A stretch of DNA of 33,277 bases from a virus (Duplodnaviria > Heunggongvirae > Uroviricota > Caudoviricetes): IMG/VR virus record IMGVR_UViG_2778261295_000004. One strand, 5' to 3'. Positions within the stretch are counted from its first letter, which is position 1. The number at the start of each line of letters is the position of its first letter. This document shows positions 268-31,007 of the stretch, in pieces. A program made the translations under genes and the position numbers. The notes beneath the pieces were generated by a model, which searched no databases, was not told the DNA's origin, and saw only the letters and a list, made by a program, of their open reading frames with translations.

Positions 268-300
268 AAGCCCTCGCGTTGAGGGCTTTACTGATTTTTT
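268..300. terminator. Probable bidirectional intrinsic terminator between convergent grxA and ybjM
   Basis: Inverted repeat agccctc / gagggct with a 5-nt loop followed by a T-run (ctgatttttt); overlaps the ybjM stop codon. Confidence 0.5.
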
Positions 301-665
301 CTGTGCTGTGGTTTAAACAAACTACTGATAAATAAGAAACACAGTGCCCCCAGCGCACACCAGAACACCGCGCTTAGTAACCATGCCAGCTCTTGCCAGA
401 ATGAGCGCGTCGGTGAAAAAAACAGCCGCATAATGAGCATTGAACAGGGTGCCGCCAGCATTGCGCCAAATAGAGGTTTCAGGACTTCTCTACGCTGTGA
501 AAAGAAACTGGCAACTGCTCCAGGAAGAATGAAAAATAGCAAGCCGATTTCAGGATGCCCGGCAGCCCGAAAAGCGCCTTTCATGTGCGTCGCCAGAAAA
601 AGGCACACCACAATGAAGAGGACAAAACAGCAGATTGCCCCCGCCCAACGTTGTTTATGTTTCAC
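288..665 (-). CDS. ybjM: Inner membrane protein YbjM
   Basis: 125-aa strongly hydrophobic ORF, GTG start, in the conserved position between grxA and ybjL. Confidence 0.7.
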   Translation of the reverse strand: MKHKQRWAGAICCFVLFIVVCLFLATHMKGAFRAAGHPEIGLLFFILPGAVASFFSQRREVLKPLFGAMLAAPCSMLIMRLFFSPTRSFWQELAWLLSAVFWCALGALCFLFISSLFKPQHRKNQ

Positions 666-934: not shown

Positions 935-2620
935 GTGAATATAAACGTCGCCGAATTGTTAAATGGGAATTACATTCTGTTATTATTTGTGGTCCTCGCG
1001 CTTGGGCTATGTCTCGGAAAGTTACGACTTGGTTCGATCCAACTGGGTAATTCCATTGGCGTTTTAGTCGTATCGCTGTTATTAGGCCAACAACATTTCA
1101 GCATTAACACCGATGCGCTTAATCTTGGCTTTATGCTGTTTATTTTCTGCGTCGGGGTCGAAGCCGGACCGAACTTTTTTTCCATTTTTTTTCGCGATGG
1201 GAAAAATTACCTAATGTTAGCACTGGTGATGGTTGGCAGTGCGCTGGTGATCGCCTTAGGGTTAGGTAAGCTGTTTGGCTGGGATATTGGCCTGACGGCC
1301 GGTATGTTAGCAGGCTCTATGACGTCGACACCGGTTCTGGTCGGTGCTGGCGATACACTGCGTCATTTCGGCATGGAAAGCAGGCAGCTCTCACTGGCAC
1401 TGGATAATCTGAGCCTCGGGTATGCCTTAACCTATTTAATCGGTCTGGTGAGTTTGATTGTTGGTGCGCGTTACTTGCCGAAATTGCAGCATCAGGACTT
1501 ACAGACCAGCGCCCAGCAAATCGCCCGCGAACGTGGCCTGGACACTGATGCCAACCGTAAGGTTTATTTACCGGTGATCCGCGCCTATCGCGTCGGCCCG
1601 GAGCTGGTGGCCTGGACCGACGGCAAAAATCTGCGTGAACTGGGTATTTATCGACAAACCGGCTGCTACATTGAACGTATTCGACGTAACGGGATTCTGG
1701 CAAATCCAGACGGTGATGCCGTGCTACAAATGGGCGATGAAATAGCGTTGGTAGGCTATCCCGACGCCCATGCCCGACTCGATCCCAGCTTCCGTAACGG
1801 TAAAGAAGTTTTCGATCGTGACCTTCTCGACATGCGTATCGTCACTGAAGAAGTGGTCGTTAAAAACCATAACGCTGTAGGTAAACGTCTCGCACAACTG
1901 AAGTTGACCGATCACGGTTGCTTCCTTAACCGCGTCATTCGTAGCCAGATTGAGATGCCGATAGATGACAACGTCGTGCTTAACAAAGGTGACGTTTTAC
2001 AAGTCAGCGGTGATGCCCGTCGCGTAAAAACCATCGCCGATCGCATCGGCTTTATCTCGATTCACAGCCAGGTCACTGACCTGCTGGCATTTTGCGCCTT
2101 CTTTGTTATTGGGCTGATGATCGGGATGATCACCTTCCAGTTCAGCACATTCAGTTTCGGCATGGGGAACGCTGCCGGGTTGTTATTCGCCGGAATTATG
2201 CTGGGCTTTATGCGTGCTAACCACCCGACCTTCGGTTACATTCCGCAAGGTGCATTAAGCATGGTGAAAGAGTTCGGCTTGATGGTGTTTATGGCAGGCG
2301 TTGGTCTGAGCGCCGGTAGCGGTATTAATAACGGCCTGGGCGCGATTGGCGGTCAGATGTTGATTGCCGGATTAATTGTCAGTCTTGTGCCCGTGGTTAT
2401 CTGTTTCTTGTTCGGTGCTTATGTATTGCGAATGAACCGCGCACTGTTGTTCGGCGCAATGATGGGCGCACGCACCTGCGCGCCGGCAATGGAGATCATC
2501 AGTGATACAGCTCGCAGTAACATCCCTGCGCTGGGCTATGCGGGCACCTACGCAATCGCCAACGTCCTGCTGACGCTGGCAGGGACAATCATCGTCATGG
2601 TATGGCCAGGATTAGGATAA
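935..2620 (+). CDS. ybjL: Putative transporter YbjL (YidE/YbjL-type membrane transporter)
   Basis: 561-aa ORF (GTG start) with hydrophobic N- and C-terminal membrane halves around a soluble central segment; matches my recollection of E. coli YbjL. Confidence 0.85.
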
Positions 2621-20741: not shown

Positions 20742-22508
20742 ATGAACACCACACTGACACCCGCAGATCTCGATCCCCGTCGGCAGGCCATGCTGCTGTA
20801 CTTTCAGGGATACCGCGTAGCCCGCATTGCTGAAATGCTGGGCGAGAAAGTTGCAACCGTTCACAGCTGGAAAAAACGCGACAAGTGGAGTGACTATGGG
20901 CCGCTGGATCAGATGCAGCTCACCACCGCCGCACGCTACTGCCAGCTCATTATGAAGGAGCACAAAGAAGGGAAAGATTTCAAAGAGATTGACCTGCTGG
21001 CGCGCCAGTCGGAGCGCCATGCGCGGATCGGCAAGTTTAACAATGGCGGCAACGAAGCCGACTTAAACCCTAACGTCGCCAACCGCAACAAAGGCCCGCG
21101 CCGTCAGCCGGAAAAGAACGTTTTCACCGATGAACAGATTGAGAAGCTGGAAGAAATCTTCCATTCCTCCATGTTCAACTACCAGCGCCACTGGTGGGAA
21201 GCCGGAAAAACCAACCGCATCCGCAACCTGCTGAAGTCACGCCAGATCGGCGCGACCTTCTATTTTGCCCGTGAAGCCCTGATTGACGCCCTGCTAACCG
21301 GGCGTAACCAGATTTTCCTTTCCGCCAGCAAGGCACAGGCCCACGTCTTTAAGCAGTACATCATCGACTTCGCCAAAGAAGTGGAGGTGGAGCTGAAAGG
21401 CGATCCGATGGTGCTTCCTAACGGGGCCACGCTGTACTTCCTCGGCACCAATGCCCGCACGGCCCAGAGTTACCACGGCAACCTGTATCTGGATGAATAT
21501 TTCTGGATACCGAAATTCCAGGAGCTGCGCAAAGTGGCTTCCGGTATGGCTATTCACAAGAAATGGCGACAGACCTATTTTTCCACGCCATCCAGTCTGA
21601 CACACAGTGCTTATCCGTTCTGGTCCGGTGCGCTGTTCAACCGTGGGCGCAACAAAGCCGATAAGGTGGACATCGACCTGTCCCACAGCAATCTGGCCCC
21701 CGGCCTGCTGTGCGCAGACGGGCAATACCGCCAGATAGTCACCGTGGAAGATGCGGTGCGCGGCGGCTGTAACCTGTTCGACCTTGACCAGTTGCGCATG
21801 GAGTACAGCCCGGACGAATACCAGAACCTGCTGATGTGCGAGTTTGTGGACGATCTCGCGTCCGTGTTTCCGCTCAGCGAGCTGCAGGCGTGCATGGTTG
21901 ACAGTTGGGAAGTCTGGACCGACTTTCATGCTCTGGCCCTGCGCCCGTTTGGCTGGCGCGAAGTGTGGATCGGTTATGACCCGGCAAAAGGTACGCAGAA
22001 CGGCGACAGCGCCGGATGCGTGGTGGTGGCACCGCCAGCCGTGCCTGGCGGTAAGTTTCGCATTCTTGAGCGTCACCAGTGGCGCGGGATGGACTTCCGC
22101 GCCCAGGCTGACGCCATCAAAAAACTGACCGAACAGTACAACGTGACCTATATCGGCATCGACTCGACAGGTGTCGGTCACGGTGTTTATGAGAACGTGA
22201 AAGCGTTCTTTCCTGCCGTCCGGGAGTTTGTCTACAACCCCAACGTTAAAAACGCCCTGGTACTCAAGGCCTACGACATTATCAGCCACCGCCGTCTGGA
22301 GTTTGACGCCGGGCATACCGACATCGCGCAGTCATTTATGGCAATCCGTCGCGCCACCACCGCCAGTGGCAACCGCCCGACCTATGAAGCCAGCCGCAGT
22401 GAAGAAGCCAGCCATGCCGATCTAGCCTGGGCAACAATGCACGCACTGTTTAACGAACCGCTGCAGGGCGAGTCCGCCAATACCAGCAATATTGTGGAGA
22501 TTTTTTGA
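20742..22508 (+). CDS. P: Terminase ATPase (large) subunit P
   Basis: 588-aa ORF divergent from O; ATG start; its stop overlaps the Q start (TGATG). Confidence 0.9.
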   Translation: MNTTLTPADLDPRRQAMLLYFQGYRVARIAEMLGEKVATVHSWKKRDKWSDYGPLDQMQLTTAARYCQLIMKEHKEGKDFKEIDLLARQSERHARIGKFNNGGNEADLNPNVANRNKGPRRQPEKNVFTDEQIEKLEEIFHSSMFNYQRHWWEAGKTNRIRNLLKSRQIGATFYFAREALIDALLTGRNQIFLSASKAQAHVFKQYIIDFAKEVEVELKGDPMVLPNGATLYFLGTNARTAQSYHGNLYLDEYFWIPKFQELRKVASGMAIHKKWRQTYFSTPSSLTHSAYPFWSGALFNRGRNKADKVDIDLSHSNLAPGLLCADGQYRQIVTVEDAVRGGCNLFDLDQLRMEYSPDEYQNLLMCEFVDDLASVFPLSELQACMVDSWEVWTDFHALALRPFGWREVWIGYDPAKGTQNGDSAGCVVVAPPAVPGGKFRILERHQWRGMDFRAQADAIKKLTEQYNVTYIGIDSTGVGHGVYENVKAFFPAVREFVYNPNVKNALVLKAYDIISHRRLEFDAGHTDIAQSFMAIRRATTASGNRPTYEASRSEEASHADLAWATMHALFNEPLQGESANTSNIVEIF

Positions 22509-23542
22509 TGGGAAAGAGTAAGAAGAACCGCGCTGCGTCGACGAACCAGATCCAGCATAAAAGCCAAACTTCAGCCGAAGCATTCAGCTTTGGCGATCCC
22601 GTTCCTGTTCTGGACCGCCGTGAACTGCTGGACTATGTGGAATGCGTACAGATGGATCGCTGGTATGAGCCGCCTGTGAGTTTCGACGGACTGGCGCGAA
22701 CCTTCCGCGCCGCCGTGCATCACAGCTCACCGATTGCGGTGAAATGCAACATTCTGACCAGCACCTACATCCCTCACCCGCTGCTCAGCCAGCAGGCTTT
22801 TTCACGTTTTGTGCAGGACTATCTGGTATTTGGTAACGCCTACCTGGAGAAACGCACGAACCGCTTCGGTGAAGTTATCACCCTTGAACCTGCGCTGGCA
22901 AAATACACCCGACGCGGTTTAGACCTGGATACCTACTGGTTTGTGCAATACGGCATGACCACGCAGCCGTATCAGTTCACGAAAGGCTGCATCTTTCATC
23001 TGATAGAACCGGACATCAACCAGGAGATCTACGGCCTGCCCGGTTATCTTTCTGCCATTCCGTCGGCCCTGCTCAACGAGTCCGCCACGCTGTTCCGCCG
23101 TAAATATTACATCAATGGCAGTCATGCTGGCTTCATCATGTATATGACCGATGCCGCGCAGAACCAGGAGGATGTGAACAACCTCCGCAACGCAATGAAA
23201 AGCGCCAAAGGTCCGGGTAACTTCCGCAATCTGTTTATGTACTCGCCTAATGGTAAAAAAGACGGACTTCAGATTATCCCGTTGTCAGAAGTCGCAGCGA
23301 AGGATGAATTTCTGAACATCAAGAACGTCAGCCGTGATGACATGATGGCGGCGCACCGCGTACCGCCCCAGATGATGGGAATTTTGCCGAATAATGTTGG
23401 GGGTTTTGGGGATGTGGAGAAGGCCAGTCGCGTATTTGTACGTAATGAATTAACGCCCTTGCAAAAAAGGCTACAAGAGCTGAACGACTGGCTGGGCGAA
23501 GAAGTGATTAAATTTACGCCCTATATTCTTTCAGAAGAATAA
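22508..23542 (+). CDS. Q: Portal (capsid vertex) protein Q
   Basis: Start refined to the ATG overlapping the P stop; the table ORF starts one codon earlier at TTG (22505). Confidence 0.9.
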   Translation: MGKSKKNRAASTNQIQHKSQTSAEAFSFGDPVPVLDRRELLDYVECVQMDRWYEPPVSFDGLARTFRAAVHHSSPIAVKCNILTSTYIPHPLLSQQAFSRFVQDYLVFGNAYLEKRTNRFGEVITLEPALAKYTRRGLDLDTYWFVQYGMTTQPYQFTKGCIFHLIEPDINQEIYGLPGYLSAIPSALLNESATLFRRKYYINGSHAGFIMYMTDAAQNQEDVNNLRNAMKSAKGPGNFRNLFMYSPNGKKDGLQIIPLSEVAAKDEFLNIKNVSRDDMMAAHRVPPQMMGILPNNVGGFGDVEKASRVFVRNELTPLQKRLQELNDWLGEEVIKFTPYILSEE

Positions 23543-23550
23543 TTCCGAAC

Positions 23551-24249
23551 TTATTTGTTTCTTCTTTGTTCACGCCTTGTCTTGGCTTCGATAAGGCGTT
23601 GAGGTTCAGTGTAAAGCCGTTCTAAAAAAAGATAGGTAAAATCTTCAAGATCCTCAGCAGCAGCTTTATCCAAAATACCTTCATGCGCGCCATCATTTCC
23701 GTCATCTTTAACGCATTCAGCTAGTTCCCTTAAAGCTTCAGGCAATAGATGATTATCAAATAACCAATCCATTCTTAACCCTAGGCTTCTCCTTATTTTT
23801 TGCGCAGGCCCTTGCTCCCCATCAGGAAGAAGTCCTTTTGTTGCATAATCAAGGCAAAGCCTAAACATGGTTGCTGCTGCATTATAACAACCAATAGCCA
23901 AACATTTCGCCCCTTCCTCATATGCACTATTGATATGCTCAGGTAAGAACTCTGGCGGCTCCTCTACTGCTAAGTCTGCCGGTGATATAGGCCTAACAAC
24001 CTCTGCAACTTCCTTTAAGCCGAATATTCCACTTTCCCAATTATAGCCATCTAAAGTTTTATTTTTCGTTAAAGGTCTGCAAAGAAACATTGTCGTTTTA
24101 TGACACTCTCGGCAAACACAATAGACCTCGTATTCGTATGTTTTACCCCCGCCCAATGCATTGTAAACCCTAGTGCAATTCAGCCCATTAACATCAAACG
24201 CTATTTTTTGTGATCCACATCGTGGACAGTCATCCACTAACATAACCAT
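23551..24249 (-). CDS. Cargo protein: N-terminal zinc ribbon plus C-terminal DUF4145/HEPN-like domain (candidate abortive-infection or defence effector)
   Basis: 232-aa ORF with strong GGGAGGAG Shine-Dalgarno; Cys motifs CPRC and CVCREC near the N-terminus; C-terminal ...LRELAECVKDDGNDGAHEG... resembles the GN-x-x-AH core of DUF4145 as I recall it; AT-rich compared with flanking phage genes. Confidence 0.55.
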   Translation of the reverse strand: MVMLVDDCPRCGSQKIAFDVNGLNCTRVYNALGGGKTYEYEVYCVCRECHKTTMFLCRPLTKNKTLDGYNWESGIFGLKEVAEVVRPISPADLAVEEPPEFLPEHINSAYEEGAKCLAIGCYNAAATMFRLCLDYATKGLLPDGEQGPAQKIRRSLGLRMDWLFDNHLLPEALRELAECVKDDGNDGAHEGILDKAAAEDLEDFTYLFLERLYTEPQRLIEAKTRREQRRNK

Positions 24250-24359
24250 GTCAATTGCTCCTCCCTATGAAAAAAATGAGTTGAAAAATTGAATATTCAC
24301 GACTTAAAAAGCTAGCCTATTTAACACCATAATTTCATTAATTCAACCATGAGCGCGCG

Positions 24360-24378
24360 CTCGTATCCCCGCCACGCC
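24360..24378 (-). other. Candidate cos cohesive-end core
   Basis: Minus strand reads GGCGTGGCGGGGATACGAG, matching in its first 13 nt my recollection of the 19-nt P2/186 cohesive end (GGCG(A/T)GGCGGGGAAAGCA...); adjacent perfect palindrome GAGCGCGCGCTC at 24351-24362. Confidence 0.4.
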
Positions 24379-24427
24379 TGCCCGCTTTGTGTAGTGGTTT
24401 TCATGCAGGTGCCTGATCCACGCAAAA

Positions 24428-24450
24428 GCCCGCCAGTTCTGGCGGGCCTT
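24428..24450 (-). terminator. Intrinsic terminator downstream of the 372-aa cargo gene
   Basis: gcccgccag / ctggcgggc stem followed on the minus strand by TTTTG; lies about 65 bp past the stop of the 24514..25632 gene. Confidence 0.5.
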
Positions 24451-24513
24451 AGCAAAAACGATCCTCAAACGGTCATGCAAATTCAGGCAGCATAGGCATG
24501 CACTGTTGTTAGG

Positions 24514-25632
24514 TTAGTTCGTAATGCCAATTTCCTTCAAAACTTTAGCCATTTCCGTCTGACTTAACTTGTTCCTGAACAAAGGGAAATTTTTCATTTT
24601 TTCCGCTCGTTGCCCTTTTGAAATAGTAATCTTTCCTGATGCTGATAACTCAGAGTCAAAAAAATAACATATTGTTGAATTTGAATTCTCCATATTTGAC
24701 TTGATACAATTCCATATGCTTTCTTTTTTCATTTCACACATTCTAGGACCAAAAATGATCCCTTTAACAACATTAGCATCATGATGAAAAATATGTCCAA
24801 TATTTCGATTTACGCGTCTTTGAACATGCCGCTCACTCCCTATTCCTGCATTTGCCTCTGGAATAAACATTCGATATTCAGCTTCATATCTCCAAAATCT
24901 ATTTTTAGTTAAAAATAACTCTGCAACATTTGCGCTTGGGTCTAGAAGTGAAACCTCTTTAGCCTGATTACTATATTTTATTTGCTTAACTGGAAAATTA
25001 AATTTATCTGATGAAAATAAATTTTCTCTTAGCTTCATTCCAGGATGTGGCACGCCATTAATATTAAAATCCTGCGTTTCATAAATCACAACACAACCAC
25101 TAAAGCCTGCAGCATAATGCGCCCACATCATACGATCTAACGCATTAGCTGAAAATGACACACTGAATACTGCAGGAACTATTTTCCTATACAACCTTTC
25201 TTTGATACTGTTCTCGCAAAGTGAGACCAAAAATTGGCGTGGTTCAGGAATATTCCCATAAATAGCGGAATTAATCACATTGATAGGTAGTAAACCATCA
25301 TTTATGATCTTACGTATCTCATCAACGTGTGAGTCAAACAGGCTATCTAATGACTCAATGCTACTTTTTATTTTTTTTCCTCTAAAAATACGATTCAATC
25401 CCTTATGTATCTTCAAATTACTCAAATCTAATATGTGACTCAAATTTTCATAGGATTTATCGCAAGGAGAACGCAATAAAATATCCCATAATTTCAATTT
25501 ATTATCAAAACGATAATCTATATTGAGATCATTAGGATCATTCAATTGCGCAGGAGCGGAAAAATATAATTCATTATAACGAATAGCTTTCTCGAAGAAG
25601 AAGTCCGGACGGTAATACTTGAAAAGATACAT
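24514..25632 (-). CDS. Cargo protein with DUF2971-like N-terminus (candidate anti-phage or abortive-infection protein, function unknown)
   Basis: 372-aa ORF, ATG start; N-terminal LFKYYRPDFFFEKAIRYNELYFSAPAQLNDPND resembles the DUF2971 signature as I recall it; strongly AT-rich and Asn/Lys/Ile/Phe-rich unlike the phage backbone. Confidence 0.55.
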   Translation of the reverse strand: MYLFKYYRPDFFFEKAIRYNELYFSAPAQLNDPNDLNIDYRFDNKLKLWDILLRSPCDKSYENLSHILDLSNLKIHKGLNRIFRGKKIKSSIESLDSLFDSHVDEIRKIINDGLLPINVINSAIYGNIPEPRQFLVSLCENSIKERLYRKIVPAVFSVSFSANALDRMMWAHYAAGFSGCVVIYETQDFNINGVPHPGMKLRENLFSSDKFNFPVKQIKYSNQAKEVSLLDPSANVAELFLTKNRFWRYEAEYRMFIPEANAGIGSERHVQRRVNRNIGHIFHHDANVVKGIIFGPRMCEMKKESIWNCIKSNMENSNSTICYFFDSELSASGKITISKGQRAEKMKNFPLFRNKLSQTEMAKVLKEIGITN

Positions 25633-26137: not shown

Positions 26138-26371
26138 TTAATGCAGCCAGCTGTCGTCTTCCCACACCTTCTGCATAATTTTCATCACTTGTTTTCTTTC
26201 TTCGTCCAGTTGCAGTCCGGTCAGTTCCACACCGTTAGAGCTACCTTTGCGGATACGAATTACCGTTTTGGGATACAGGGGGCGCAGATTGCGGTAAAGC
26301 TCGGATTCAAGGGCGTCCAGGGTAGACTGGCTAATTTTCTGCTCTTTATCGATCATTATTTCAATGCGCAT
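26138..26371 (-). CDS. DinI-like SOS-response protein
   Basis: Start refined to internal ATG (MRIEIMIDKEQ...) with GAGGTG upstream; N-terminal MRIE... and C-terminal acidic W-containing tail resemble E. coli DinI. Confidence 0.8.
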   Translation of the reverse strand: MRIEIMIDKEQKISQSTLDALESELYRNLRPLYPKTVIRIRKGSSNGVELTGLQLDEERKQVMKIMQKVWEDDSWLH

Positions 26372-26381
26372 AAAAGTCACC

Positions 26382-26570
26382 TCAGCTGATGACATCCATT
26401 GAGCGGTTGTATTCGTGGCTTCTGATTTTTGCCATGAGTTCATCAGTCAATTCAGAAACCCACTGCAGAGCCAGCCCCTTCTCTTCATCACTACACTCAC
26501 TAGCCGCTACAAGCTTAAGAAAAAAATCAATGCGCTGGAGCTTCAAAGACTCCAAAAAATAGTCCTGCAT
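26382..26570 (-). CDS. Small protein (62 aa), first gene of the LexA-box operon; possible Tum-like antirepressor
   Basis: Internal ATG preceded by a perfect AGGAGG; the upstream part of the table ORF (to 26672) contains the LexA box and so is unlikely to be coding. Confidence 0.5.
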   Translation of the reverse strand: MQDYFLESLKLQRIDFFLKLVAASECSDEEKGLALQWVSELTDELMAKIRSHEYNRSMDVIS

Positions 26571-26723: not shown

Positions 26724-29102
26724 TTAATACAGATCCCGCCACTTATCATCTTCCTGCAAACGCTGGTTCCGATAGAAGATACGCAGGCCTGCTCCTGACG
26801 GAATACTGCCGCCGCGAAGGAGTAAATCGACCTCTTTCTCGCTGCCATCAAATCCTCTGGACTTCAGTTCATAGACGAGCTGCTGTCGTTGATGGTCTGT
26901 AATTCGCTGTTTGTAGTCTCTACGCCGTTTCGGTTTCACCAGGCGTAACCTTGCAGCCAGTTCCCGGCGTTCTTTTTTGTTCATACTGTGCAGGTAATCG
27001 TGCAACTCCTTGTCATCCATACGGGTGATATCCGTTCTGGTATCCCCATCAGCTGATTTGTCTTTCCCTTGTTGGTACAAATTTTCAGCAAGGGGACAGT
27101 TATTGCCACGAGTCCGAGTCCAAGGGGCGCAAGCGCCCTGGTCGGCTGCCGCCTCCTGAACATCAACGGCCTTACGAACCATTTTCCACTTCACGGCATG
27201 AGTGCAGATCTTGCCCTCTGCAATAGGTGACCAGATGCCATAAATACGAATGCCGTGATCGCCATAGGCGGTCGGCTCTTCGTTGATTTCATAAGCGGTT
27301 CTGATGAGGTGATATTTGCGGGGAACCAGTACGCCGCCCTGCTTCATGATGTAGGTGGCAAAACAACCAGCATCAGCAGCAGCCAGGATGGCATCAAGGC
27401 GCGGGTTATCCAGTACCGGCGCACCTGCTTTTTTGTCCCCCTGTTGCCTTGCCGCCTGACCAGCCAGCAATCGCAGTTCACGGTAAGCCTGACGCCCCGG
27501 AATGCCAAAGAAGCGGAATTGCTGAACACGATGCAGAGACGCCCAGGCATTAACGTATTCAGCATTATCACGCAGGGATTTCCCCGTTTCCTTGCTGATC
27601 TCGCCAGCCAGACCACGCCCGTCAATGTTCTTACTGATGTATTTCGCGATGTAGCTTGTTGGCGTACCTTTGCGCGGGTTAATCAACTCAGACTTAAAGC
27701 GCGGCCCAGTGTTATTGCCCAGTTCCTCGCGGTCTTCACGGATGGCAAACTTACGCAGTAATGCAGTGATGGCGCGGCGGTCTTTTTTGCGCATAAAACA
27801 CAACAGGTGCCAGTGAACTGTACCGTCATGATGCGGCTCAGCCACCCGCACGCCATACCACCGCAATCCGGCTTTGTGCATCGCCTTACGAAATGCAGCA
27901 AACATGCCGACCAGATAATCACTGCTTTGTCTTACCGTCGCATTTGTCCAAGTTGGGTTGGGCCTGCCATTATTTAGCGTGGAATGGAAACGTGACGGAC
28001 AGGTGATGGTGTAGAAAACGGCGCAGTCACCGCGCATTTCCGCGATAAGCTCCAGGCCTTTAACACAGGCCATCATCTCATTGCGGCGATGCGCAGGGTT
28101 GCTGCTGCTGGCGTTTACCACATCCTCCATGTCCAGCGTGTCGCCGTCTTCGTTCACCAGTTCATGAGAACGAAAAAACTCCAGCGACTTACGGCGCTGC
28201 TCACGTTTATGCATCACGGCTTCATAGCTGACATAGGGAGATGCTTTTTTGCTGACCAGGCAGACAGCACGCAACTGCTCTTCCCGCCATTCGCAACGCA
28301 TCTTCCATAATTTCCGGTACCACCAGTCAGCGCACAACATACGCGCCAGCGAACCCGGAATGAGTTCATAGGGCACGGGTTTACGGCGGTTTCTTTTCCG
28401 GCGGAGTTGCTCAAACGCAGGCGGGATGACATCCAGACGCAGGGTTTCCGCTGCCACCTTTTCCCATGTCTTGCGGATTTCTTCTGGCTTAACGTCATCG
28501 GTGACATACAAATCGCCACAAGCTGCATCAAGGCACATGCTCATATGCGCAGCTACCAGGGTGGACAGGCGTTTCACCTGATCCTGACTCATTTCAGGCA
28601 GGATCAGCAGGCCGTCCAGCCCTTCATGGCTTGCCATAAAGCGAAAAGAAGTGGATAGCTGACAGTCGCGTACATGCTCCAGCCGTTCCAGACATGGCTT
28701 AATCGTCTCACGCAAATAGCGGGAATAAGCCTTTGGCCTGCCCAGGCTGCTGAAGTATTCAATACGTTGCATCAGTGGCTTGCTGATATGGGAAGGCTGG
28801 GCATTAACGTCCGCCAGAATGACCATATCTGGATTAAAACGCTGCTGCTCATGCGCCAGCTTTGCCCGACTAATGAGCTTATCCTGCTCCATTTCGCGCT
28901 GGACAGGATCACGGGATTCATTAAAGAAATAACGCTCCCAGACCTGATCACTCAGTGCCTCGCGGCGCAGCTGTTCCTGCTCGTTATCGGCAGCGTACAG
29001 AGCGATCAGGTTTGAAAGCGCAGAAACTGAAGATTGCTCTTCCGTCTCTACGTAAGGATTGATTGCTTTTTTCTCAGCATTCCAGGAATAGCTGTAGTTC
29101 AT
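26724..29102 (-). CDS. A: Replication initiation protein A (rolling-circle endonuclease)
   Basis: Large ORF containing ...[18 protein letters not shown]... and ...[12 protein letters not shown]... motifs typical of P2 gpA-family initiators. Start placed at ATG 29102 (GGAGA upstream, TAATG overlap with the upstream gene); table ORF extends to 29153. Confidence 0.9.
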
Positions 29103-29932
29103 TACGCAATCTCCAGTTCGAGCTGTGAAGGCTGCAAACCATTCGACAGCCAATCAGAAACTGAAGGTGGGCGAACAGCTTCAATTGCACCTTTTAAAAT
29201 TGCGCAACGGTTTTTCAGAATGACAGCTTTCAGCTCCTTTTCCGTCAGATTGCGCGAATACTCAGCCTCCTGAATAGCCCGCGTCAGCTCAGGATATTTG
29301 CTATTAAATTTGGGGACATTGCAGGCAAGATTTGTACTGTCGGCAGTCGCCAGTGGGTAATTTCCCAACACACGACCGTCAAGCATGCGCAAACCATGAA
29401 CAGCTGTTTTGAAATTGTGTCGGCAATAAATTGCTTCAAAAGCGTCCTGCATACGACGATGCCAGTGCGCAGTTCTGATAGCCGCATATTCACCAGACGA
29501 TCCAAAGCAGACACGAGGCCATTCACGACATAGCTCGATAAGCCGATCGATTGACTCGTGCAGATGCCAGACGGGAGTTGCCTTCCCGTAGAACATTTTC
29601 GGAACTTCGTTTATCAGGGCATCATTGTCACGTTCACCTCCGTCCACAACATCAGGAATGACAAAAAAAGCGACCTTAGGATGGTGGTAATAGTTCAGGA
29701 GCCATTTATAAAAATCACTCCAGTTAATTTTTAGCCCACGCACCCATGCAGAAAATGCGCCGTTATCAATGCCGACGACCTGAGCGTGCTGAATGGACGC
29801 CGCAATCTGATCTGGTCGTACATAGGAGACGAAAGCGCCAGCTCCGCTCACCGCAATACGATGAACGTCGCCAGCACTTCCCCAGACAGGCGTCCCATGG
29901 AAATGATGAATTCCGTGGTGCATTTCTTTCAC
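29102..29932 (-). CDS. Hypothetical protein between dam and A
   Basis: 276-aa ORF, GTG start overlapping the dam stop (alternative ATG at 29923); translationally coupled on both sides. Confidence 0.5.
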
Positions 29933-30783
29933 ACTTGCACCCCGAAAATAACAGTAGAGTCACGTCCCCTACTAAAATCGGCACTAAACCAATTAGCAGA
30001 TTTAGTGGCAATCATCTCTGTTGCAAATTTTCCCTCCCCCGCTGCAACGCCGATGCTGCGTTTCGCCCTGATGTAGTGGTGAGTGAAATTACGATAAAGG
30101 GACCGGGTCAAAGACGTGTTACTGTTAGAAACAATGACCGGATGTCCTTCTGATGACCGATGTTCAAGAATGGATGCCAGGTGATACTGATCATCTTCAG
30201 TGAAACCATCAGTGTGATAGCCGGAAAACGTACCGTCATAAGGCGGATCGCAATACACCACATCCCCCACCTTCAACATCGCCAGCGTTTCATCAAAGCT
30301 GGCGCAGATAAACGTTGCCCGCTGGGCTTTCTCTGCAAATGCGCGAATTTCTTTTTCAGGGAAATACGGATTTTTATAATTACCGTAGGGAATGTTGAAA
30401 TGCCCGCTCTTGTTATAGCGACATAAACCACGGTAACCGTGACGATTGAGATACAGGAAATATACCGCTTTCATGAAATCAGTAATTTCAGTGGAGTAAT
30501 TAAACTCCTGCCTTATGTTGTAATAAGCCACCTCCCTGTTTGCTTCCTCAAATAAAGCTCTGGCACGAGATATAAACGCCTCACAATCAGCAGCAACCTT
30601 TTTATAGAGGTTGATTAAATCAGGATTAATATCCGCAACAAGATAGCTGGGGTAATCCGTCTCCATCATCACTGCACAGGAACCCGCGAAAGGTTCAACC
30701 AGTCGCGGGCCAGCAGGAAGATGCTTTTTCAGTTCGGACATTATGGCGGTTTTATTTCCTGCCCATTTCAGGATGGTGCTCAT
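29929..30783 (-). CDS. dam: DNA adenine methyltransferase (Dam family)
   Basis: Start refined to ATG ([11 protein letters not shown]...) with GGAGGTG upstream; contains the ILKWAGNK and DPPY motifs of Dam-type N6-adenine methyltransferases. Confidence 0.85.
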
Positions 30784-31007
30784 ACAGCACCTCCGTTGTA
30801 ATGTTTGCCTTTCAGCTCTGCGATTTCCTGACAGGTAATGCAAAGCTGCACACCCGGAATGGCACGGCGGCGTGCTGGCGGAATTGGCGCTTCACACTCA
30901 ACGCAAAGCACGCGGGACACGCCCGGCGTTTTGGCACGGGCAGCACGGATATGGCGTTGGCGTTCTTCTTCAACGCGCTGCTGTACGAGATCCATTGCAT
31001 CAGCCAT
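30780..31007 (-). CDS. TraR/DksA-family C4 zinc-finger protein
   Basis: 75-aa ORF with CVEC ... CITC spacing; ATGA overlap with dam. Confidence 0.75.
   Translation of the reverse strand: MADAMDLVQQRVEEERQRHIRAARAKTPGVSRVLCVECEAPIPPARRRAIPGVQLCITCQEIAELKGKHYNGGAV

Follow-up and report, generated by a model that had tools for sequence, protein, structure and literature searches.

The locus raises the question of what a complete protein-coding gene does between the portal gene Q and the cohesive-end site (cos) of a P2-like prophage, and whether its product, which combines a zinc ribbon with a DUF4145/HEPN domain, is to be read as a defence protein. The window, i.e. the whole stretch of 33,277 nucleotides analysed here (IMG/VR virus record IMGVR_UViG_2778261295_000004), holds a P2/186-like prophage and, at the left end, a piece of the E. 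coli chromosome. From sequence comparison and by analogy to RAZR, the ring-activated zinc-finger RNase formerly called PD-T7-4, the gene is on balance probably stand-alone, RAZR-like abortive-infection RNase cargo (a ‘moron’) in a P2/186-like prophage hotspot. That the protein is a defence or exclusion HEPN nuclease appears very likely, and that it is activated as RAZR is, by assembling on a ring of phage protein, is plausible but tentative. By the same analogy, a single-gene abortive-infection RNase is the most likely identity, and the gene probably adds a member, or a sister subfamily, to a defence type that is known and has lately been explained. The gene and the boundaries of its slot are as follows.

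23551..24249, minus strand: DUF4145/HEPN gene, complete open reading frame (ORF) with ATG start, 232 amino acids (aa) plus stop codon
22508..23542, plus strand: portal gene Q, convergent neighbour and left boundary of the slot
23543..24351, no strand: Q-side cargo slot, from the portal stop codon to the cos block
24352..24507, no strand: conserved cos block, right boundary of the slot, with the 19-nt cohesive end at 24360-24378

In the window sequence, the stop codon of Q occupies 23540-23542 and that of the DUF4145 ORF 23551-23553. Because Q ends at 23542 and the ORF stop begins at 23551, the genes are convergent with 8 nt between them, and the initial annotation, which had placed the end of a 232-aa ORF 8 bp past the Q stop, was borne out in its coordinates. 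RefSeq-type annotation names the product ‘DUF4145 domain-containing protein’ (WP_000245244-like). Its parts were assigned as listed below.

24073..24249, minus strand: Cys4 zinc-ribbon domain, presumed sensor, aa 1-59 (C8-x2-C11, C46-x2-C49)
23950..24072, minus strand: variable linker, aa 60-100, with strand 82-88
23554..23949, minus strand: helical DUF4145/HEPN domain plus basic C-terminal tail, aa 101-232
23683..23709, minus strand: motif K181-D-D-G-N185-D-G-A-H189 (VKDDGNDGAH stretch), family form [K/R]-x3-N-x3-H
24258..24266, minus strand: Shine-Dalgarno-like GGGAGGAGC, including GGAGG, 8 nt 5′ of the ATG, by direct sequence reading

The cysteine motifs CPRC (C8, C11) and CVCREC (C44, C46, C49) had been taken for a zinc ribbon. 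Across 239 family members, C8, C11, C46 and C49 are conserved at 95-98%, which fits a Cys4 zinc ribbon, and C44 is not conserved. Further support for the ribbon comes from the AF2 model, in which the N-terminal domain is rich in beta strands (predicted local distance difference test, pLDDT, ~85-92; predicted strands 3-6, 16-30, 36-46 and 52-59). The ribbon is also the fastest-evolving portion of the protein. The C-terminal strings quoted in favour of DUF4145 were all found in the protein, and a Pfam search confirmed the assignment (PF13643, aa 114-203, E=4e-7, 30.5 bits vs a gathering score of 23.1). The protein has the helical HEPN fold (Pfam clan KNTase_C). No NCBIfam model matched it; PHROG phrog_1305 matched over the full length (E=1e-52).

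Conservation of the K...GN..AH residues, proposed earlier as RNase-type, was examined in the same 239 members. N185 and H189 are near-invariant, as are E112 and R130, and at position 181, 157 members have K and 70 have R. The canonical HEPN motif R-x4-6-H is absent, the protein having K-x7-H instead; about 20% of DUF4145 members are without the canonical motif (PMC3710099). Four further cysteines of the HEPN domain, at aa 116, 121, 132 and 179 (codons in 23713-23904), are 83-94% conserved in the family. A second metal site made of them is unlikely, Ala or Ser standing there in 6-17% of members, and a buried position, with a role in packing, is the more probable reading.

A functional selection led to the discovery of PD-T7-4, described as a zinc-finger fusion with a domain of an RNase family (Vassallo et al. 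2022, PMC9519451). The protein, from E. coli UMB1727, was renamed RAZR and solved as PDB 9Y9C/9Y6U (Zhang et al., Nature 2026, PMC13017515). According to the latter paper, RAZR consists of a Cys4 zinc-ribbon zinc-finger domain (ZFD) plus a DUF4145 HEPN domain; the substitutions R146A and H154A each abolish defence, and A68-G69-N70 in the linker is functionally required. RAZR alone forms linear oligomers and is non-toxic when overproduced. For activation, 24 copies gather around ~170 Å rings of a phage portal (T7 gp8, T3 or SECphi18) or Erf-like protein, followed by non-specific cleavage of single-stranded RNA (ssRNA), translation arrest and abortive infection. The ZFD is the variable specificity determinant and the most variable region, and still binds rings (PMC13017515).

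The PADLOC model of PD-T7-4 matched the window protein with E=1.4e-6 (25.9 bits, aa 36-200) and 70 of 94 family representatives, the best with 8.9e-13, and both domains were spanned in some; such modest profile scores are to be expected of a sister family. A profile built from the 94 sequences retrieved the RAZR chain from PDB (9y9c_OA, ‘DUF4145 domain-containing protein’, 219 aa, E=1.7e-5), which was missed by phmmer with the window protein or with P0090 as query and by a 24-sequence profile. The RAZR family was then gathered using the aligned fragment of 9y9c_OA as query, and its member P0267 has all residues named in the paper (R29, Y31, R35, T41, E43, A68-G69-N70, R146 and H154). Alignment of the two families with hhalign gave a probability of 97.0% and an E value of 8.1e-11 over 114 columns (window 100-224/RAZR 76-193), with the residue pairs E112/E88, R130/R105, K181/R146, N185/N150 and H189/H154. 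The linker segment I-x-P-A...P-P-E-x-L-P pairs with RAZR 64-79, which holds A68-G69-N70, and in the AF2 models of both proteins strands and CxxC knuckles follow one another in identical order. The link to abortive infection drawn in the initial annotation was strengthened, since the architecture is that of PD-T7-4/RAZR and K181/H189 align with the catalytic R146/H154.

Window protein and RAZR are each one protein of ~220-230 aa with a Cys4 ribbon, two CxxC knuckles ~30-35 residues apart, and a C-terminal DUF4145 HEPN domain with catalytic positions spaced x7 and conserved Asn and His. In both, the sensor half is more variable than the effector half; in the window family, identities of the N-terminal 100 aa vs the HEPN half are 79% vs 94% for P0002 and 45% vs 81% for P0025. 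Both are also encoded by a stand-alone gene on mobile DNA. Unlike RAZR, the window protein has ~25 extra residues (aa 60-81) that follow the ribbon and precede strand 82-88, and a longer basic C-terminal helix, its family has K or R where Arg146 is invariant in the RAZR family, and its gene lies in the P2 Q-cos slot, whereas that of RAZR overlaps an integrase gene. Judged from sequence, the family of the window protein is thus a distant sister of that of RAZR, alike in architecture, and the protein is not an orthologue. AbiV, LsoA/RnlA, Csm6 and the HEPN-MNT toxins differ further: they are without a zinc ribbon, have R-x4-6-H where the window family has [K/R]-x7-H, and are under antitoxin or cyclic-nucleotide control.

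The family itself is large. Homologues form 605 clusters in a 90%-identity collection, and among 50%-identity library representatives 222 matched at E<=1e-30, 708 at E<=1e-10 and 1827 at E<=1e-3. Identities of 45-50% span Enterobacteriaceae to Omnitrophota, Verrucomicrobiota, Pirellulales and Nitrospirae, so that with these numbers a chance ORF is far outstripped. The gene is present in 41 of 5426 complete E. coli genomes (~0.8%), including prophage Cartapus of strain LF82, in which the same arrangement is annotated (99.6% aa identity), and homologues at 52-88% identity adjoin portals in diverged P2-like phages.

The cos site was placed through conservation with other phages plus alignment to the P2 left end. 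The P2 cos 19-mer, searched with <=3 mismatches, gave no match in the window, the site being 186-like with 5 mismatches. In the alignment, the counterpart of P2 cosL (nt 1-19) is minus-strand window 24378..24360 (GGCGTGGCGGGGATACGAG, 14/19 identical), followed by the common CGCGCGCT. Window positions 24352-24504 are 82-92% conserved in ~40 other P2-like phages, and in related loci anchored on cos conservation extends from about −15 to +140, with background level on either side. With the cohesive end placed at 24360-24378, the DUF4145 gene lies between Q and cos, as had been claimed, 110 nt from the cohesive end.

To P2 itself the earlier statement of a short, gene-free cos-Q gap applies (167 nt, with only the tQ terminator). 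The location in the window had therefore been called unusual, which did not hold for its relatives. In 80 IMG/VR loci with a Q >=92% identical to that of the window, cos was searched by pattern and BLAST and located in 75, and ORFs of >=70 aa were counted as cargo. Fifty different Q-cos spacings occurred, the shortest 191 and the longest 3532 nt; at least one ORF lay in the interval in 73 of the 75 loci, convergent with Q in 71 of those 73. The slot ORFs fell into 62 protein clusters and are mostly recognisable defence genes, with families such as AbiU/AIPR, retron RT-Toprim, RT+NDT, PIN_12, GmrSD, TIR, Schlafen/AlbA_2, SieB, AAA_13 and DprA+PRTase. Only ~5% of the closely related prophages carry the DUF4145 gene. 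The Q-cos interval is a standard defence slot in this phage lineage.

The gpA-gpQ interval as a whole is a published P2 defence hotspot (Rousset et al. 2022, PMC9122126; PMC9519451; Moura de Sousa et al. 2026, PMC13586616). The window resembles it in lying inside gpA-gpQ, in low GC (~40% in the Q-side slot vs ~55% in the flanking core genes), in an occupancy that varies among near-identical phages and in defence alleles alongside. It differs from P2 in that the Q-cos interval, gene-free there, holds one gene, with another cargo set on the A side. The hotspot genes old and tin of P2 we take to lie on the gpA side of cos. Because the cos block of ~155 bp is conserved and its flanks are at background level, the hotspot of these phages consists of two slots parted by cos, a split that is not spelled out in the consulted passages of PMC9122126, PMC9519451 and PMC13586616.

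By analogy to RAZR, the following course of events may be envisaged. The DUF4145 protein would be made in the lysogen and kept inactive as dimers or linear oligomers, with the N-terminal Cys4 zinc ribbon as sensor and the C-terminal HEPN motif [K/R]-x3-N-x3-H as active site. Upon superinfection, the zinc ribbons would bind a multimeric, probably ring-shaped protein of the incoming phage, for which a portal or Erf-like recombinase would qualify. Ring binding would shift the HEPN dimers, leading to non-specific ssRNA cuts, a stop of translation and abortion of the infection. RNase activity, trigger, oligomerisation, abortive outcome and expression in the lysogen are all carried over from RAZR in this model.

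Several findings weigh against so close a parallel. Homology of the zinc ribbon to the ZFD of RAZR was found neither by hhalign nor by BLASTP, and because the ZFDs are not alignable by profile, the protein could have another trigger and even another principle of activation; as the ZFD varies more than any other part of RAZR, its non-alignment hurts orthology more than analogy. Pairwise identity to RAZR is a distant 27% over 131 aa (linker plus HEPN half), and the AF2 model of RAZR used for comparison is of low confidence (pLDDT 61.5 overall, 77-90 only in residues 10-60). At the position of the essential Arg of RAZR the window protein has Lys; the K/R interchange within a strongly constrained family argues that both residues work. 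A consensus sigma-70 promoter on the gene strand upstream of the DUF4145 gene was not found by a simple scan. DS-38 (HEP2), an E. coli single-protein zinc-finger (ZnF) plus HEPN defence validated in DefensePredictor (bioRxiv 10.1101/2025.01.08.631726; Science 2026, PMC13092281), shares only the HEPN part with PD-T7-4 according to its authors (Laub's group), from which a different activation was inferred. Finally, self-activation poses a puzzle if a sensor of rings or portals is carried by a phage that has a portal ring of its own to build. The window protein was also considered as DS-38 itself, which it resembles in its single-protein zinc-finger plus HEPN architecture and in its E. coli origin, and this identity was rejected by length and accession (366 aa vs 232 aa; WP_001313577).

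The self-activation puzzle would be solved if gene and portal were functionally paired, which we consider doubtful. In such a pairing the zinc-ribbon allele would be tuned to pass over the prophage's own gpQ dodecamer and to respond to portals or Erf-like rings of other phages, rival P2-like ones among them, and antisense read-through from P-Q would silence the gene in the phage's own lytic cycle. That Lys can stand in for the ‘essential’ HEPN Arg would be a further point of this proposal. No canonical terminator was detected between Q and the DUF4145 gene by a promoter/terminator scan. On the plus strand, antisense within the 3′ end of the DUF4145 ORF and ~30 nt past the Q stop, a hairpin was found at 23572-23599 (10-bp stem, centroid −15 kcal/mol, z −3.7), which is stable and without a T-run. 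The late P-Q transcript may end at this hairpin; otherwise it would run antisense through the defence gene.

Among the other explanations, the one nearest to a RAZR-like enzyme keeps the defence HEPN RNase and lets the ribbon sense something else than a ring of phage protein, for example a nucleic acid, a signal of host takeover or a phage protein that is monomeric, with no need for a RAZR-style ring of 24 copies; we regard it as rather unlikely. It draws on the restriction of the hhalign match to the HEPN half and the undetectable ZFD homology, on the ~25 residues absent from RAZR, on the existence of ZnF-HEPN proteins with distinct ZnF domains such as DS-38, and on the different genomic homes, the window family residing in the P2 slot or in IS/integrase elements. 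It is opposed by the ring binding of the likewise variable ZFD within true RAZR (PMC13017515), by the shared order of strands and knuckles and by the aligned linker motif. A non-catalytic or non-defence role, as a nucleic-acid-binding regulator or packaging accessory near cos with HEPN as binding module, is improbable. The phrog_1305 match carries the label ‘DNA binding protein’, the gene is the first after cos and K replaces the canonical HEPN Arg; yet an experimental basis for the PHROG label was looked for and not found, and the family occurs mostly outside P2-like phages, portal, terminase and cos all being absent nearby in 75 of 80 diverse genome loci. The low frequency of the gene among close prophages, in a slot otherwise filled by defence genes, also speaks against such a role, and the near-invariant H189, N185, E112 and R130 together with the K/R interchange are what an active site would show. 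Still less probable is a prophage-stabilising toxin (addiction or toxin-antitoxin-like) or a stress-induced RNase unrelated to superinfection. HEPN RNases are common among toxin-antitoxin toxins (PMC3710099) and the gene sits on a mobile element, but the same 80 loci show no conserved partner beside it, RAZR by itself is non-toxic when overproduced (PMC13017515), and the hotspot has a rapid turnover and is not fixed. An antitoxin partner (e.g. MNT) is likewise absent in the window, where the 110 nt upstream reach cos and the convergent portal gene lies downstream.

The least probable of the alternatives is a two-gene system formed across cos with the DUF2971 gene, which occupies the A-side slot. 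The genes around this slot are as follows.

24508-~26700: A-side cargo slot, holding the DUF2971 gene
24514-25632, minus strand: DUF2971 gene
26138-26443, minus strand: DinI-like gene, between gene A and the A-side cargo
26724-29153, minus strand: replication gene A (gpA)
20742-22508, plus strand: terminase P

The local order is terminase P, portal Q, DUF4145 gene, cos, DUF2971, DinI-like gene, gene A. The DUF2971 and DUF4145 genes share a strand and occur together in the window and in 4 of 6 places with an 88%-identical homologue, and ‘DinI + DUF2971 + DUF4145’ stands in the Rousset table. However, cos parts the two genes, which puts them at the two ends of the DNA once it is packaged. Across from a retained DUF4145 gene, the A-side cargo may be DUF2971, GAPS4 or a 225-aa protein; DUF2971 at 97% identity is also paired with other Q-side cargo (locus L141), and the association is absent outside P2-like phages in the 80 genome loci. 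In those loci no neighbour of the DUF4145 gene recurs, bar P2 structural genes in 5, and one homologue adjoins an IS91 transposase and an integrase. The DUF4145 gene is thus a single-gene system. The DUF2971 protein itself (372 aa, ~33% GC) matches the PADLOC candidate family PDC-S31 (E 3e-23) and phrog_1762, and a 372-aa E. coli DUF2971 protein (WP_000280510.1) is a predicted defence gene in the DefensePredictor supplement. Its identification with the validated DS-45 (‘2971’) was rejected, DS-45 having 181 aa.

Further observations were made on the window and on related loci. The DinI-like protein reached 41.5 bits with the NCBIfam DinI model, under the equivalog cutoff of 111, and related prophages keep the gene in the same place, flanked by gene A and the A-side cargo. 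Directly upstream of gene A, an orphan Dam-type N6-adenine methyltransferase is encoded at 29929-30843 on the minus strand (Pfam MethyltransfD12; PADLOC oMTase, E 6e-110). The two genes listed below identify the host flank at the left end, and the window is therefore a prophage plus neighbouring E. coli DNA.

288-665, minus strand: ybjM, host flank
935-2620, plus strand: ybjL-like Asp-Al_Ex/TrkA_C permease, host flank

In Enterobacter wuhouensis (L010 6697-7798), ~1.1 kb of extra DNA separates the portal gene from a DUF4145 homologue of 59% identity, so that the Q-side slot has room for a DUF4145 gene plus further cargo. Beside another DUF4145 copy, the portal gene is split by a Mu-like element with Mor, GemA and transposase genes (Logan contig L089 7295-12699). 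Distant ZnF plus DUF4145 proteins are encoded by Shigella/Stx phage POCJ13 (gp20, L002 4040-4714) and Burkholderia phage phiBt-TXDOH (L003 4001-4636). Their motif has Arg (VRIDANKAVH and VRLDGNDALH), they are more remote from PD-T7-4 than the window family, and they occupy early/immunity regions of lambdoid and Burkholderia temperate phages, one of the two neighbouring a RelE/ParE toxin and a Ren-like exclusion gene.

In practice, the locus is ordinary, a defence gene where P2-like phages store defence genes, and the arrangement is already known: it is listed in the Rousset supplementary table as ‘hypothetical + DinI + DUF2971 + DUF4145’ (PMC9122126) and annotated in Cartapus. For annotation, ‘RAZR-like HEPN RNase, putative’ could supersede both ‘DUF4145 domain-containing protein’ and the PHROG label. 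If active, the subfamily would extend RAZR-type immunity to the 222 (E<=1e-30) or 1827 (E<=1e-3) 50%-identity representatives from many phyla, and its non-alignable sensor and Lys/Arg active site would be natural variants for probing RAZR-like recognition and the strictness of the HEPN Arg. The prophage is a tractable case, with a possible portal/ring sensor only 8 nt away from its own portal gene, and the pairing with gpQ, if true, would give an immune protein that senses structures an inbuilt way of telling self from non-self.

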